Positions 10,665 to 19,791 of a DNA stretch of 64,000 nucleotides are shown here, piece by piece. The stretch lies in assembly GCF_054482525.1 (NCBI RefSeq), contig NZ_CM137006.1. One strand, 5' to 3'. How positions within the stretch are numbered: position 1 is the first letter of the stretch; every line of letters starts with the position of its first letter. Made by a program: the position numbers and the translations under genes. The notes under the pieces are model-generated. The model ran no database searches and was not told where the DNA came from. It saw only the letters and a list, made by a program, of their open reading frames with translations.

Positions 10665-12344
10665 TTACAAAGACAGAATCACTTTTGCACCCACCGCCAG
10701 CTGATAGAGGATGGTGGAAATACCACGGGTAACTTCAATGTTTTTCGATTCATATTTCGGCAGAACCATAATCTCATCGCCCGGTTTGAGTGAATCCACA
10801 TCTTCTGCGTTGACGGCTGCACCGTTCTGACGAATGACGATAATTCTGGCGTTACCCGATTTCTGCGTCAGGCCACCACATTTCTCGATGTAATCCTCGG
10901 TGGTCATACCCTTCTGCCAGCTCACCGCGTTCGGGAACAGCACTTCGCCATGAACCATAACCAGCGATGTTTTCTCCGGAATATTGATGACGTCGCCATC
11001 TTCAAGCAGAACAGAATCAATATTGGATTCGTTGAGGATCACTTCACCTTTCGGAACCACGGTGCGTGCTTTCGCCACAAAGCGGCTGATCAGTTGTGCT
11101 TCCTGCATTCGCAGGCTGGCTTCTTCTTTGGTGGATGACTGGGCAGAAAGTGAGGCTTCCTCCAGTTTTTGCAGCGAGAGATTCAGCATCTCTTTCTGAC
11201 GCTGAGCTACTGATGGGCGATAAAGCTGAACCGCGTTCATCTGCGACATGCTGTTCGGGCGGACTTTTTCCAGAACCGCACGCATAGTGGAACCATAAGG
11301 CAGTACCATGGCATGTTCACCGGAGTGCGCGCCTTCAACCCGCACCTGAATGGTGCCGGCATAGCGGTCAGTGCTCACGATTAAGGTATCGCCATTTTGC
11401 AACATACGGCCTGGTGCAGAACTGATCGGATAGTATTCGCTGCGTTTTTGCAGCCCCTGTTTACGCATAATCGTAATGTGAGTCGCGCCAGGCTTAGGGC
11501 GCGCCCAGCTCAACGCTTCCGTTACGGGAATGCTGCTTTCGCGGAACTCAAAGTCGTAGCTGTTAAAGACATCGCCCTGAACGCTGAAAGTATGCTGACG
11601 CGGCCCGACGATGATGGTGTCACCATCGGCGAACTGCGAAAGCCCCAGTTTGCCGTTCAGCAGGAAGTCGTACAGGTTGACGTTGGAGCGCACGCGGTTA
11701 CCGCGCTTGACCACAATATCAACGTAACTTCCGCGCTCTGGATCAACGCCGCCAGCCTTGATCAGATAATTGAGTAACGAATCAGACGTCACACCGCCAT
11801 ACAGACCAGGATTACGCACAAATCCGGTCACGTACACTTTTACTGGCTGCGCCTGTAATAAGGAGGCGTAGACGTTGACGTTGGACTGGTACACTTCTTT
11901 CACTTTGGATGTGACCAGGGCATTTAACTGACTATTACTGACGCCAGCAACTTTCACCGGACCAACGTTCGGCAGGAAAATATTACCTTTGGGATCAATC
12001 TGTAACGCACCATCAAAGGTGAACGCACCCCACAAGCGAACCTGAATGCTATCGCCCGGATTCAGAATATAGTCAGGGTTGAATCCTACCGTCGCACCGC
12101 TATCCGCGCTGGTGCCGTTGAAAAGTTGAGCACCAAACATGCGGCTCATGACCACCGGCGGTGCGGGCGGCGGGGTATTGTCAAAGCCGCTCATGTTTTG
12201 CGTATCCGATTTTTGTCCGCTCAGAATACCGGTAAGCGGCGCTGCTCCTGTCAGGTTTGGGTCAGCGTTAATATCAATGGCCGCGCTGGCCTGCGCAGCC
12301 TGACAGGCGGCAATCAGTAAAATTGATTTCAATAATTTCATCAC
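10665..12344 (-). CDS. kpsD: Capsule polysaccharide export protein KpsD
   Basis: 559 aa with N-terminal signal peptide MMKLLKSILLIAACQAAQASA; Wza/KpsD-like. Confidence 0.9.
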   Translation of the reverse strand: MMKLLKSILLIAACQAAQASAAIDINADPNLTGAAPLTGILSGQKSDTQNMSGFDNTPPPAPPVVMSRMFGAQLFNGTSADSGATVGFNPDYILNPGDSIQVRLWGAFTFDGALQIDPKGNIFLPNVGPVKVAGVSNSQLNALVTSKVKEVYQSNVNVYASLLQAQPVKVYVTGFVRNPGLYGGVTSDSLLNYLIKAGGVDPERGSYVDIVVKRGNRVRSNVNLYDFLLNGKLGLSQFADGDTIIVGPRQHTFSVQGDVFNSYDFEFRESSIPVTEALSWARPKPGATHITIMRKQGLQKRSEYYPISSAPGRMLQNGDTLIVSTDRYAGTIQVRVEGAHSGEHAMVLPYGSTMRAVLEKVRPNSMSQMNAVQLYRPSVAQRQKEMLNLSLQKLEEASLSAQSSTKEEASLRMQEAQLISRFVAKARTVVPKGEVILNESNIDSVLLEDGDVINIPEKTSLVMVHGEVLFPNAVSWQKGMTTEDYIEKCGGLTQKSGNARIIVIRQNGAAVNAEDVDSLKPGDEIMVLPKYESKNIEVTRGISTILYQLAVGAKVILSL

Positions 12345-13584: not shown

Positions 13585-14568
13585 TTAGTCGAAAATGCGC
13601 ACAAGGCCAGTGACTTTATTTGCCTTGTTGGTCACCAATAACGTTGAGACGCGGTGCTTTTGCATTTTTTCTTCCGCTTCAATGATCATGGTGTCTTCCG
13701 GTAGCGTCAGCGGTTCACGTGTCATCATCTGCGCAGCCGTGGCGGATGTCAGAGAATCCTCTTTTTCCATAAAGCGACGCAGGTCACCGTCGGTGATAAT
13801 GCCCGCTAGCCCACCTTCTGCGTCTTCTACCATCACCATTCCCTGGCATCCGCTGGTGATACGTTGAATCACGGTTTTAAATGACGCATCCAGCTGTACC
13901 GCAGGAACATCATGCTGCATGACATCAGCAACGCGGGTCAGCAGGCGACGACCTAATGAACCGCCCGGGTGATAGCGCGCAAAATCATTCGGCATAAATT
14001 TGCGTTGGTGGATCATGGCAATCGCCAGCGCATCGCCGATCGCCATCGTCAGCGTGGTAGACGTTGTTGGTGCAAGATTATTCGGGCAGGTTTCATTCGC
14101 CATGTGGAGTTCCAGCACGGCATCAGCATTTTTCGCCAGCGTGGAATTTCCATTATTGGTAATGGCGATAATTCGGTTGCCGAAATTTTTCAGTGAAGGA
14201 ACTAGCTTGAGGATTTCATCCGTTTCACCGCTGGCAGAAATAAGGATCAGAAGATCGTAAGGCGTAATCATGCCCAGATCGCCATGGAAAGCTTCTGCAG
14301 GATGAATAAAGAAACTAGGCGTACCCGTAGAGGCCAGCGTCGCTGACATTTTACGACCGACATGCCCTGATTTACCCATTCCCGAAAGAATAACGTGACC
14401 TTTACAGTTCATTATCAAATTAAGGACACGCTGGTACTGCCCGGAATCCAGTTGTTTAGACAAGTTTTGTAATGCTGCGCCTTGTTCTGCCAGAGTCTGG
14501 CGAACAGAGGTAATTAGATATGGATCGATAGTACTGCTCTGGTCATCAGGTAAATGTCTTTCAGACAT
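13585..14568 (-). CDS. kpsF: Arabinose-5-phosphate isomerase KpsF
   Basis: SIS domain plus CBS pair. Start placed at ATG 14568 (MSERHLPDD), preceded by AAAGGAG, giving 327 aa; the track ORF begins 36 nt upstream at 14604. Confidence 0.85.
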   Translation of the reverse strand: MSERHLPDDQSSTIDPYLITSVRQTLAEQGAALQNLSKQLDSGQYQRVLNLIMNCKGHVILSGMGKSGHVGRKMSATLASTGTPSFFIHPAEAFHGDLGMITPYDLLILISASGETDEILKLVPSLKNFGNRIIAITNNGNSTLAKNADAVLELHMANETCPNNLAPTTSTTLTMAIGDALAIAMIHQRKFMPNDFARYHPGGSLGRRLLTRVADVMQHDVPAVQLDASFKTVIQRITSGCQGMVMVEDAEGGLAGIITDGDLRRFMEKEDSLTSATAAQMMTREPLTLPEDTMIIEAEEKMQKHRVSTLLVTNKANKVTGLVRIFD

Positions 14569-14604
14569 ATCAGCTCCTTTGCACGGAAATAATGCCACAG
14601 TCAC

Positions 14605-15296
14605 AGCAAACCCGAACCCACTATAATTTATTTATGCTAAATCAATGGGTTGTAACAAAATTTTTAATGAATATAAAACCATGGTCAGTCCATGCTTATA
14701 TGCAGGACTTATCACCTTCTTATTAAGTCGCAATGTCTCATGGAGGTGCGAAGATGCTGCAATATTACAGGCGAGAAGGGGAACCAAATTTTGCCCACCT
14801 ATTTAACACACCCCTACATTATGAACAAGGAATTTAGGATTTTTATCATTTATTAAAATGTTTCCTACTTGACTATTAAGACCAAAAACAATTTATCAAT
14901 TGATTATTTCCTCGTAAAAAAAGAACGTATGACCATGTTATTAATAAATAAAACACGTAAATAATGGTGATGTTGTTTTATGATTAACTATTTAAGAACG
15001 GTATAATAAACAGGTTGACAATTTCTATGTAAAGAAGAAAATAATAAAATTTTAGCGGTGACTATTGAATGATATGATAGTTGTGGTGTTGATTATTTCT
15101 GGTAATGAATGCGGAATTAAATCTGGCCGGATTGTATTTTTGCTATATCTATTTTTCAGGAGATTATTATTAAATAGAAAAATAACAATGGTGATTATCT
15201 CTGGTTGAGTTGGAGTCACGTATGCCAGCGAGTGCTTTCTTCCGGGCCTTCCTTCACTTCAGAGAAAGAGCCTATGGAAAAGAGGCAATCATCAGG
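14605..15296 (-). promoter_or_regulatory. AT-rich kps region 1 promoter and long 5' leader region (exact sites not mapped)
   Basis: About 690 bp AT-rich non-coding DNA upstream of kpsF; no specific binding site identified by eye. Confidence 0.35.
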
Positions 15297-16722
15297 TAAT
15301 GCCGATCAGTTAAGGATCAGTTGACCGATCCAGTGGCTGTGTAAGAATCCGGAAACGCTCACTTGTTTCCGGATTTTTTTATGCACATTGGACAGGCTCT
15401 TGATCTGGTATCCCGTTACGATTCTCTGCGTAACCCACTGACTTCTCTGGGGGATTACCTCGACCCCGAACTCATCTCTCGTTGCCTTGCCGAATCAGGT
15501 ACTGTAACGCTACGCAAGCGCCGTCTTCCCCTCGAAATGATGGTCTGGTGTATTGTTGGCATGGCGCTTGAGCGTAAAGAACCTCTTCACCAGATTGTGA
15601 ATCGCCTGGACATCATGCTGCCGGGCAATCGCCCCTTCGTTGCCCCCAGTGCCGTTATTCAGGCCCGCCAGCGCCTGGGAAGTGAGGCTGTCCGCCGCGT
15701 GTTCACGAAAACAGCGCAGCTCTGGCATAACGCCACGCCGCATCCGCACTGGTGCGGCCTGACCCTGCTGGCCATCGATGGTGTGTTCTGGCGCACACCG
15801 GATACACTAGAGAACGATGCAGCCTTCCCCCGCCAGACACATGCCGGGAACCCGGCGCTCTACCCGCAGGTCAAAATGGTCTGCCAGATGGAACTGACCA
15901 GCCATCTGCTGACGGCTGCAGCCTTCGGCACGATGAAGAACAGCGAAAATGAGCTTGCTGAGCAACTTATAGAACAAACCGGCGATAACACTCTGACGTT
16001 AATGGATAAAGGTTATTACTCACTGGGACTGTTAAATGCCTGGAGCCTGGCGGGAGAACACCGCCACTGGATGATACCTCTCAGAAAGGGAGCGCAATAT
16101 GAAGAGATCAGAAAACTGGGTAAAGGCGATCATCTGGTGAAGCTGAAAACCAGCCCGCAGGCACGAAAAAAGTGGCCGGGACTGGGAAATGAAGTGACAG
16201 CCCGCCTGCTGACCGTGACGCGCAAAGGAAAAGTCTGCCATCTGCTGACGTCGATGACGGACGCCATGCGCTTCCCCGGAGGAGAAATGGCGGATCTGTA
16301 CAGTCATCGCTGGGAAATCGAACTGGGATACAGGGAGATAAAACAGACGATGCAACTGAGCAGGCTGACGCTGAGAAGTAAAAAACCGGAGCTTGTGGAG
16401 CAAGAGCTGTGGGGTGTCTTACTGGCTTATAATCTGGTGAGATATCAGATGATTAAAATGGCGGAACATCTGAAAGGTTACTGGCCGAATCAACTGAGTT
16501 TCTCAGAATCATGCGGAATGGTGATGAGAATGCTGATGACATTGCAGGGCGCTTCACCGGGACGTATACCGGAGCTGATGCGCGATCTTGCAAGTATGGG
16601 ACAACTTGTGAAATTACCGACAAGAAGGGAAAGGGCCTTCCCGAGAGTGGTAAAGGAGAGGCCCTGGAAATACCCCACAGCCCCGAAAAAGAGCCAGTCA
16701 GTTGCTTAACTGACTGGCATTA
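15297..16722 (+). mobile_element. IS4 insertion sequence, 1426 bp, intact
   Basis: Terminal inverted repeats TAATGCCGATCAGTTAAGG (15297-) and CCTTAACTGACTGGCATTA (-16722); 11-bp direct repeat CAATCATCAGG at 15286-15296 and 16723-16733. Confidence 0.9.
15363..16709 (+). CDS. IS4 transposase
   Basis: 448-aa ORF inside IS4; true start may be the internal MHIGQALDL Met. Confidence 0.9.
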
Positions 16723-16814
16723 CAATCATCAGGCTCTTTTTGAGTCATATGCGCCGATAATCAACTGTCTTGAACGTAACAATTATGGAGCAACATGATG
16801 CTACGATTCATTTC

Positions 16815-17000
16815 ACTCTTCGTTCTTTCTGAGCATTGCGTTCAGGATGGTCAGCAATTTACGCATACAGTCAACCAGCGCCACTTTTTTGGTTTTTCCG
16901 GCTGCTGACAGATGCATGTAAAACGCCTTTATCACCGGATTAAACCAGGTTACCACAAGCGCTGCCATGTGCAGGGCTGCTCTTGCCTCCGTACGCGCAC
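16815..17000 (-). pseudogene. IS110-family transposase, C-terminal fragment
   Basis: Minus-strand translation ends ...VALVDCMRKLLTILNAMLRKNEE*, the conserved IS110-family C-terminus; no N-terminal part. Similar DNA at 56393-56460. Confidence 0.5.
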
Positions 17001-17162
17001 TGGCGTCGTTCGGCCAGCAGATATGTGTGGGATAACAGGGATGTTATGTGAACTGAACTGTGTTTTGTTAACGGGGGATGTTTATTGATGATTCGGTAGT
17101 GTTTAAGACCTGATGGCGTTATGCTCCCAAGTTTATTTTATATAAAGATCCAAAAGCAAAAA

Positions 17163-17180
17163 CCCGCCTTGTGGGCGGGT
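17163..17180. terminator. GC-rich hairpin (CCCGCC-TTGT-GGGCGGG) flanked by A/T runs
   Basis: Perfect short stem-loop with A-run before and T-run after; next to the tRNA-like repeat. Confidence 0.35.
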
Positions 17181-17193
17181 TCTTTAGAATTAG

Positions 17194-17215
17194 TGGTGCC
17201 GGACTCGGAATCGAA
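17194..17215 (-). repeat. tRNA-Phe 3'-end-like 22-nt repeat (island att-site remnant)
   Basis: TGGTGCCGGACTCGGAATCGAA is the reverse complement of a tRNA-Phe acceptor/T-arm 3' end with one base missing; no full tRNA present. Confidence 0.5.
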
Positions 17216-17325
17216 AATTTCTTTTATCATATTGATATTAATACAATTTGTTTGGTTTGATTAAAAATGTACCCTCAATTATACCCGCAGTCCCTTTTGA
17301 TATCGAAAGGGAATCACACTCGGGA

Positions 17326-18168
17326 TCAGGCTGAGAGCACAGAAGGAAAGTACCTGGCTATTATATCGTTAATTCTGTCAATCAGTTCCAGCCTTTTGAA
17401 AGTGATGTGTGCAGATCCCTTCTTAAAGTATTTAATGATGAACATCTCGTCTTCATAGCGCTCTTTACCCTGAACGGACTGGATGTGACCATCCAGACGA
17501 ATAGTGATGTTTTCCCGGTTGTCGGGGATCGGTTTGCCGCTGAACAGATGTAGCATTCTTTCCAGGTCGACGAGTCGGTCAGTCTGTTGCCCGGTGATAA
17601 GATGAAACCCCCACCGGTCCCACCTCACCAGGTTGTTGACGATAATTTTACTGCCAAATTTGCAGGGGCAATTGGTTTTGTAATTCCAGCTCAGTCCCCT
17701 GAAGACGTTGATCACCCCTCGCTCAAACACCTCATCCTTATTCTGGTGTAGTTGTTCAAATGTGCTCAGAATGTTCGCTTCACTGATTTCCGGAAAATTA
17801 TCGTGCTCCAGTGACCGGTACCATGTATCACGGGCCTGTGCATCCATTAAGGAAAGCATCCCTGAACGTTGCATCAGGTCACGCCAGATTTCGCGATCGA
17901 GATTGCGTGTGATAGCTTTCATTGCGGTTTCCGGTTTCTCCATCAGCCAGCAGCCGCAGCGAAAATCCTGTTTCATGGCCCAGTCCGGGGCGGCTTTACC
18001 GCCAATACTTTCTGTCATTGCTGAGATTTCAGCCAGTTGCCGGATAAGTGTGTCGATTTGCAGCAGTGTACTTTTTCGTACAGCCAGAATGTGGCGGATA
18101 CTGGTTGAGCAGATAACGTCCGTATGCCCGGTGACCACTTCCGGATGGGAGATTGTGATGTTTGACAT
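17326..18168 (-). CDS. Conserved island protein, probably DUF4942 family (CP4-44-like module, copy 1)
   Basis: 280 aa; paralog of 45243-46109; occupies the module-terminal position after the YeeW-like genes. Confidence 0.6.
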   Translation of the reverse strand: MSNITISHPEVVTGHTDVICSTSIRHILAVRKSTLLQIDTLIRQLAEISAMTESIGGKAAPDWAMKQDFRCGCWLMEKPETAMKAITRNLDREIWRDLMQRSGMLSLMDAQARDTWYRSLEHDNFPEISEANILSTFEQLHQNKDEVFERGVINVFRGLSWNYKTNCPCKFGSKIIVNNLVRWDRWGFHLITGQQTDRLVDLERMLHLFSGKPIPDNRENITIRLDGHIQSVQGKERYEDEMFIIKYFKKGSAHITFKRLELIDRINDIIARYFPSVLSA

Positions 18169-18252
18169 TATCGGTTTCCCTTTTGGTTTATAAACGAAAA
18201 CGCCAGCCGTATTCAGGCTGGCGTCAGGGTAATGAAGCGTGGTGAGTGATAT

Positions 18253-18461: not shown

Positions 18462-18950
18462 TTATCAGTCGAAAGTGGGCAGGTCCGGCAGACATTCAGC
18501 GCTGGCATCCAGATGAATGAGACTGACGCCATAACGTTGGATGAGTGTGACAAACAGACGACGGAACGTTTTTGACAGCCCCAGGCGTTTAAGCCGCAGA
18601 ACCGGATATGATCACGCATCGGTACGTAACAGATATCCGCTACCTGTGAAATGAATCCATTCTGATTCGCCGAAGTCACTGGTCTGGTGTGACAGTGAGT
18701 ACAACCAGGCGTTGTCCGTTTCCGTGATATGTGCGGTACTGCAGCGTATGCCGGCAAGGGTTGCAAATGGCGGTGGTGTGCAGGTTGACTGTTGGTCGGA
18801 TTCCTCTGCCACACGGAGTGAATAATCGTTTTCAGCGACGTTATTAATCAGTTCAGTGAGATTAACACCATCGACGTCAACGACAATTCGCCCCATGTTC
18901 AGTGCCTGCACATTAATGCTGTCGGCTTCCAGCATCAGGGAAAGTTTCAT
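18462..18950 (-). pseudogene. YeeW-like protein, truncated by a TGA nonsense codon at codon 113 (copy 1)
   Basis: Copy 2 (46403-46894) reads through TGG (W) where copy 1 has TGA; downstream frame in copy 1 still encodes SYPVLRLKRLG... Confidence 0.55.
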
Positions 18951-19321
18951 CGTTTCTCCGGATGCTTACCCAGGGTAATGTTATTTACCGTTCTGTAATT
19001 GTCGCGGGTCATCAGGCCGGTCGCCCTGCGAGCCCGGAGGATATCGATGCTGTTTATTAACTGAGAGCGGGTACAGGCACTGAATTCCGGCTGGTCGGTA
19101 CGCACCAGTGCGTATTTTTCAACAAGAAAGTTCACTGCATCGCACAGTGAAATGCCAGCTTCAATATGCTGCTCAATCACACGTTCATCGGCGAACGGTG
19201 TGTCATTCAGCGTAAGGCCGTAATGCTGGTCCAGCAACCGGGACAGCAGTGTCTGCCAGATGGTGACGGGAGACGGGCAGCGCGATGCCTCCCGTACGTG
19301 TGTGTCGGGTAATGTTTTCAT
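18947..19321 (-). CDS. cbtA: CbtA/YeeV-family toxin
   Basis: 124 aa, [56 protein letters not shown]... Confidence 0.85.
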
Positions 19322-19410
19322 ACTGAAGGTTTTCCTGATATGCAGAGATGAAAAATGGAAAAGTGGCGTGGTGAAAGCACCAGGCCGGAGCAGAAGGTTA
19401 TTCCGGTGGT

Positions 19411-19791
19411 TTACTTTTTCGTTTCGGATGTTGGATAAACAGCCAGATAAACGTAACCACAGCTGCCGAGGGTGTCGGCTTCGCAGGTCAGCCCTTTCGC
19501 ATACAGTGTGACGGTATGCTGATGGCGGGGATTCAGTTCACCGCCGGTGAGCATGAGTTCCAGTTGTTTCATCAGCAGCGGAAAGGCCTGGTCCAGGTGG
19601 TACGCATCCGCGTCGCTGAACAGGCCTCTGATACCGGCGCGGTCGGCAAGGTAATGCAACCGGTTACCCTCCTGCACCAGACGTGCCCCGAAACAGGGCG
19701 TCACGGTGCAGGGTAGCCCCCCACCAGGGGCGGTTGTTGTTGTCGGGATGCGTTGTCCCGGGGAGTGTGTCTGACACGATAAAATCCTCAC
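19411..19791 (-). CDS. cbeA: CbeA/YeeU-family antitoxin, N-terminal frameshift relative to copy 2
   Basis: Residues after ~25 match YeeU ([31 protein letters not shown]...); copy 1 has a 6-C run at 19727-19732 where copy 2 has 5. Confidence 0.7.

Follow-up and report, generated by a model that had tools for sequence, protein, structure and literature searches.

A complete IS4 element between the capsule promoter region PR1 and an IS110-family remnant upstream of kpsF is probably a neutral marker of a small lineage

The window analyzed here, a stretch of 64 kb, carries the border between region 1 of a kps capsule locus and a genomic island integrated at pheV. The first gene of region 1, kpsF, is encoded on the minus strand (13585-14568), and its 327-aa product combines SIS and CBS domains. 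Reading from left to right, kps region 1 is followed by its regulatory region PR1, an IS4 element, a gap of 28 bp, a remnant of an IS110-family element, about 150 bp of further sequence, the pheV terminator with attR, and a CP4-type island. This order bears out the initial annotation, which had located IS4 at the border of the capsule locus and the island array. The same annotation had given the distance to kpsF as roughly 0.7 kb, in agreement with the 729 bp that separate the kpsF ATG at 14568 from the nearer IS4 end.

The element occupies 15297-16722 on the plus strand, as determined by repeat matching and by comparison with the copy in MG1655, and measures 1,426 bp. Its 18-bp terminal inverted repeats (IRL at 15297-15314 and IRR at 16705-16722) match at 16 of 18 positions (TAATGCCGATCAGTTAAG and TAATGCCAGTCAGTTAAG, respectively). 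Relative to the K-12 MG1655 element, which is annotated as 'insertion sequence:IS4', there are 5 differences over 1,426 bp (99.65% identity) and 3 amino-acid changes in the transposase, and copies in five other genomes are 100% identical to that of the window. The InsG-type transposase ORF (15381-16709, plus strand; 442 aa) reads in the direction opposite to kpsF, and the PGAP version begins at a TTG codon at 15363 and is 448 aa long. Pfam matches to Nterm_IS4 (PF13006, 3e-33) and DDE_Tnp_1 (PF01609, 1.4e-31) were obtained, as well as a match to the NCBIfam model transpos_IS4_1 (NF033592) at 304.7 bits against a cut-off of 115. The protein also contains the Y-2-R-3-E-6-K (YREK) signature of the IS4 family. 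On these sequence criteria the element is IS4 itself, the type element of the family, and it is complete. The earlier description of an intact IS4 is therefore upheld in its length, its inverted repeats and its whole DDE transposase. The intact ORF and ends, together with the target duplication described below, are compatible with transposition activity of this copy.

Both ends of the element contain a terminator-like hairpin that faces inward and is accompanied by a T-run. The hairpin inside IRL lies 5′ of the transposase start (15346-15380, plus strand) and has a predicted folding energy of -21.4 kcal/mol (z -5.8), a stability equaled by none of 200 shuffled sequences. Its counterpart inside IRR (16693-16718, minus strand) folds at -18.7 kcal/mol (z -5.7), and, as predicted from the fold, would halt kpsF-strand transcripts coming into IS4 from the island side. 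Outward promoters occur in some other insertion sequences, and IS4 could by analogy provide kpsF with an outward-reading or hybrid promoter. In a kps locus rearranged in ST131, a promoter derived from IS1 has been proposed (bioRxiv 10.64898/2025.12.15.689991). However, a consensus scan of the left IS4 end returned one promoter-like site, which is directed inward on the transposase side (15321-15348, plus strand), and returned no outward consensus promoter toward kpsF at this kps-proximal end. Between that end and kpsF, at a distance of about 500 bp, there is moreover a strong array of native promoters, and promoter activity of IS4 toward kpsF is very improbable.

IS4 is flanked by a perfect direct repeat, CAATCATCAGG, with its left copy at 15286-15296 and its right copy at 16723-16733, both placed by a coordinate check. 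The repeat stops at 11 bp, and the 11-mer has no other occurrence on either strand of the 64-kb window. An exact match of this length at both junctions would be expected by chance with a probability of about 4^-11, or 2e-7. When the flanks are joined through one repeat copy, the reconstructed empty site is an exact match to strain 20A24, in which CAATCATCAGG is present once. Because the IS4-less reconstruction matches 20A24 exactly, the repeat is a true target-site duplication that has undergone no later rearrangement, and the 11-bp duplication reported in the initial annotation is confirmed on both sides of the element.

To the right of IS4, the 3′-terminal portion of an IS110-family element, about 235 bp in length, is found on the minus strand at 16762-16995, as supported by DNA homology, protein comparison and PGAP. 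What survives is the end of the coding sequence (~62 codons), with a premature stop at 16813-16815, together with the 3′ non-coding end. The terminus is intact. The 5′ part is missing: homology ceases at about 16995, and the remnant lacks both the N-terminal DEDD domain and the non-coding 5′ sequence of a complete IS110 element. Translation of the minus strand at 16816-17001 gives 76% identity to residues 251-312 of the 322-aa IS110-family transposase of pLVPK (E 1e-29), a protein that matches DEDD_Tnp_IS110 (PF01548), Transposase_20 (PF02371) and NCBIfam transpos_IS110. In a Pfam scan at E 0.01 the remnant peptide alone gave no match (16.1 bits against a cut-off of 21.3), and PGAP labels it a partial IS110 family transposase. 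The IS110-family C-terminal fragment that had been noted just right of IS4 is therefore real.

At the other end of the remnant, homology to full-length IS110-family elements ends at window position ~16762. Three unrelated contexts split at this same terminus: the window itself, pFII-FIB, where the surroundings are a T6SS region, and pLVPK, where they are an IS3-family element. Plasmids with the empty site bracket the IS110-family copy of pLVPK at exactly that point. These two observations fix the terminus at 16762, and the IS4 target (16723-16733) therefore lies 28 bp outside the remnant. The view that IS4 had inserted into the IS110-family remnant is accordingly not sustained; the two elements are neighbors.

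The arrangement of kpsF-upstream sequence and remnant recurs in 1,492 of 5,426 complete E. coli genomes, including island-free strains, in which the remnant abuts pheV, with about 210 bp between it and the tRNA gene itself. The remnant is thus an old, fixed landmark of the pheV-kps boundary and records no strain-specific event. The idea of successive insertion sequence hits at this junction is supported in a loose sense only, the remnant not being particular to this strain. The empty site was also searched for among 72,556 plasmid records, where NZ_LR890315.1, a 29-kb record labeled as a Klebsiella oxytoca plasmid, gave the only full-length match (16535-17026, 99.8% over 492 bp, to the E. coli kpsF-upstream/remnant empty site). 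This record could be a mislabeled contig or a transferred kps boundary.

Beyond the remnant, a stretch of K-12-type backbone on the minus strand (17146-17216) contains the downstream terminator of pheV (17158-17184) and the 3′ end of the tRNA-Phe gene (17194-17216). The latter consists of the last ~22 nt with a deletion of 1 nt (CCGGCACCA instead of CCGGGCACCA), and ARAGORN detects no tRNA within the window. This stretch is the attR of the pheV-integrated island and forms the outer edge of the capsule locus. Within the island portion of the window, an ORF for a CbtA-family toxin (124 aa) in the minus-strand interval 18947-19791 looks intact. In the window, the N-terminus of the YeeU-type antitoxin beside it is aberrant, and the annotations of GN03551 and 20A24 both mark this antitoxin as frameshifted. 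The neighboring DUF5983 gene carries an internal stop in GN03551. An IS3-family element of isolate F719 (H26) was considered as a further insertion between PR1 and the remnant and was rejected, as it lies beyond 17330 at the 3′ end of a DUF4942 gene.

In GN03551, the genome that best matches the window, the island extends for ~46 kb to its integrase, and the segment 718801-768800 is the counterpart of window positions ~14000-64000. Its contents include a sugar-utilization block (alpha-galactosidase, MFS transporter, GH32 hydrolase and porin), a type I restriction-modification system whose M and S subunit genes are separated by one for an AAA ATPase, an IS3-family element that harbors a group II intron (ltrA), and an autotransporter of the Cah/Ag43 type. 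The two sequences are identical over 14000-18200 and diverge beyond ~21.9 kb, at first through SNPs and then by loss of register.

The reason for the position of IS4 was sought in its target preference. IS4 generates duplications of 11-13 bp at pseudo-palindromic sites of the type AAAN20TTT. A full-text literature search for AAAN20TTT as a published IS4 consensus returned no match, and the preference was evaluated empirically on copies of the element taken from MG1655 and from eleven further genome hits. This provided seven further independent sites, all with duplications of 11-13 bp. AAAN20TTT is centered on the duplication at 6 of the 8 independent sites, among them the kps site with its layout AAAAGAGG-CAATCATCAGG-CTCTTTTT, against a background of 0.18% of positions in the IS4-free window. 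Most of the seven further sites combine a left A-run with a right T-run as mutually inverted repeats, and several of them are terminator-like hairpins at gene 3′ ends, for example at tynA/feaB, adhE, aroA and typA. A stricter palindrome rule, derived from the other IS4 sites, gives twelve hits over three core lengths in the 62.6 kb of the IS4-free window. These hits amount to about ten distinct positions, the actual insertion site among them. The position of IS4 is thereby explained by transposase preference, and therefore selection on capsule regulation need not be invoked.

The IS4 copies in TCM3e1 (near bamD) and SCU-172 (near kup) were left out of the target analysis; no duplication was detectable at either. 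Both genomes hold multiple copies, and the lack of a duplication would fit recombination or deletion between copies. Destruction of a functional terminator by IS4 at kps was considered and is not proposed, since the hairpin of the empty site is no more stable than shuffled sequences (z -1.2 and -1.3).

The consequences of the insertion depend on where IS4 stands relative to PR1, whose regulatory region as mapped in the literature and anchored on the window covers 14613-15018 on the minus strand (PMC8960920, PMC5738388). In the published maps, PR1-1 is located 225 bp upstream of kpsF, PR1-2 at +132, PR1-3 at +181 and the IHF site at +140, with H-NS/SlyA footprints at -224 to -134, -121 to -79, and +1 to +32 (PMC8960920, PMC5738388). 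Four anchors were taken from Jia et al. (PMC5738388), namely the IHF 13-mer, the EMSA primers, the PR1-2 hexamer and the -13 T of PR1-1. The IHF 13-mer TTACAACCCATTG is found at 14643-14655, the EMSA primers (+46 to +224) at 14749 and 14571, and the PR1-2 -10 hexamer TATATT at 14670-14675. All four landmarks agree on a PR1-1 +1 at 14794, give or take 1, and this places the starts of PR1-2 and PR1-3 at about 14663 and 14614, respectively, and the -224 footprint edge at about 15018.

On this scale IS4 begins at about -503 from PR1-1, some 280 bp past the most distal H-NS/SlyA footprint. All mapped PR1 elements, from +181 to -224, are contiguous with kpsF, and IS4 lies neither within nor between them. 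The promoter thus maps wholly within 14605-15285, which is the first of the two findings (the other being unchanged activity) that the initial annotation had named as speaking against its suggestion of displaced upstream regulatory input, and no mapped element has been moved by the insertion. Base composition changes along the same stretch: GC content is 24-28% across 14800-15199 and 49% across 15200-15299, where IS4 landed. Judged by composition, the AT-rich tract at 14800-15199 is the stretch expected to hold H-NS, with IS4 outside it.

An influence of IS4 on region 1 could nevertheless be exerted at a distance, by separation of far-upstream cis elements or of nucleoid context (the IS110 remnant, the pheV boundary or the island) from the promoter, by a change in local supercoiling that divergent transcription of the transposase would bring about, or by a GC-rich boundary to the H-NS domain. 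IS4 shifts the DNA beyond -503 outward by another 1,437 bp and introduces divergent transcription, and PR1-2 has been reported to depend on transcription-coupled supercoiling (PMC5738388). Furthermore, the IS4 site lies within the fragment of -646 to +227 that was used as the 'full-length' PR1 reporter (PMC5738388), and the distal end of this fragment falls at window position ~16877, in the IS110 remnant. Jia et al. (PMC5738388) also found PR1-1 repression to be stronger on the chromosome than on a plasmid, and suggested far-upstream cis sequences or the local supercoiling or nucleoid state as its basis. A literature search yielded neither a published 5′ deletion analysis of PR1 for the interval from -646 to -224 nor other PR1 regulators that bind upstream, and the paper on Rcs and K92 gives no PR1 site.

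Several observations weigh against such an effect. Every mapped site lies at least 280 bp to the promoter side of IS4, and the AT-rich tract has already ended before the insertion. DNA past about -1,000 is naturally variable among strains, in which either pheV follows directly or an island of ~46 kb intervenes. In addition, a second insertion sequence occurs closer to PR1. ISEc10, of the IS21 family, is inserted at the equivalent of window positions 15120-15127, at about -330, in 137 of the 5,426 complete genomes. This insert is ~2.4 kb long, has a duplication of 7-8 bp and lies between PR1 and the IS110 remnant (junctions at 4230 and 6639 in the example examined, in which istB is annotated with an internal stop). 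Because this larger element sits nearer PR1 in 137 genomes with an otherwise intact region 1, DNA beyond about -330 appears dispensable, and the comparison argues that sequence farther upstream is not needed for a working capsule locus. In the ST131 strain NCTC13441, 'ISEc10 upstream of kpsF' showed no correlation with the antibody-binding phenotype studied (PMC7382476). Later insertions have thus entered the DNA between PR1 and the remnant at least twice independently, namely IS4 (4 genomes) and ISEc10 (137 genomes). Taken together, modulation of region 1 by IS4 at a distance is unlikely, though it retains more weight than a promoter supplied by the element.

A narrower form of this idea is that IS4 (at -503) and ISEc10 (at about -330) sever PR1 from the chromosomal-context input suspected by Jia et al., which seems a slightly less likely proposition still. 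If it were true, carriers would be expected to show measurable changes in the thermoregulation of the capsule or in its control by growth phase, and they would constitute ready-made natural mutants of a deletion series with which to study chromosomal-context repression of PR1-1.

The insertion itself is rare. IS4 as such is present in 2,686 of the 5,426 complete genomes (median 1 copy per positive genome, maximum 32). It occupies the kps site in four: GN03551 and GN03139 (human bloodstream, USA), 2452 (human, China) and AH50 (poultry). GN03551 has IS4 at seven places and its kpsFEDUCS genes are annotated as intact. In 2452 (locus at 10466-12244) most of the pheV island is gone, and an IS1A lies between DUF5983 fragments and a truncated integrase beside pheV. 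Misassembly is frequent at insertion sequence copies, and the junctions in the window might for that reason be suspected of being an assembly artifact or a chimeric join. This is scarcely credible, since four complete genomes that were assembled independently of each other agree in junctions, orientation and duplication, and since the empty site in 20A24 is exact.

Over 4.2 kb the sequences of all four carriers match the window without a difference (100% identity), whereas the nearest genomes with an empty site reach at most 99.3%. This pattern suggests a single ancestral insertion that has been inherited clonally in a small lineage. Given the site preference of IS4, independent insertions at the kps site are, strictly speaking, conceivable. 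The kps-site IS4 is best used as a rare lineage marker. Neither the element nor the insertion is new as such, as IS4 is a textbook element and PGAP has already annotated this insertion in four public genomes.

The preferred reading is a simple one, in which IS4 transposed into non-coding DNA between PR1 and the old IS110 remnant. The site was chosen through the preference of the element for a pseudo-palindrome of A-run and T-run, and staggered cleavage followed by repair produced the 11-bp duplication. PR1 and its known inputs remain contiguous with kpsF, beside an element that is oriented away from the gene and holds hairpins inside both of its ends. Ordinary transposition with no or negligible effect on capsule expression, leaving a neutral marker in a small lineage, is thus the likely account. 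The neutrality of the insertion, which is deduced from its position and the precedent of ISEc10, is probable. The main value of the analysis is corrective: IS4 lies beside the remnant, the remnant is fixed in ~1,500 genomes, and the mapped PR1 is untouched.

Three known systems help to place this insertion. Mutants resistant to phage K1F have been described in which insertion sequences in the polysialic acid gene cluster are reported to confer the resistance (PMC9241782). The body text of that paper mentions neither IS4 nor a promoter, and kpsF appears in its reference list only. The resemblance is that mobile elements have struck a group 2 capsule locus in both cases. The K1F-resistance insertions described there lie within the cluster and abolish the capsule, whereas IS4 at kps breaks no gene and sits in intergenic DNA about 500 bp upstream of the promoter. 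ISEc10 provides a closer parallel, as it occupies the same intergenic stretch and likewise leaves kpsF and the mapped PR1 elements intact. It differs from the kps IS4 in belonging to another insertion sequence family, in lying ~170 bp nearer the promoter, and in being commoner (137 genomes against 4). Closest of all is the IS4 of K-12 (insG, b4278), which agrees with the kps copy in its length of 1,426 bp and in its inverted repeats, and whose site also fits AAAN20TTT. Its duplication is 12 bp, compared with 11 bp at the kps site, and both fall in the same range. The two differ in location only: the K-12 element is found in the KpLE2 region near nanX, and the one described here upstream of kpsF.
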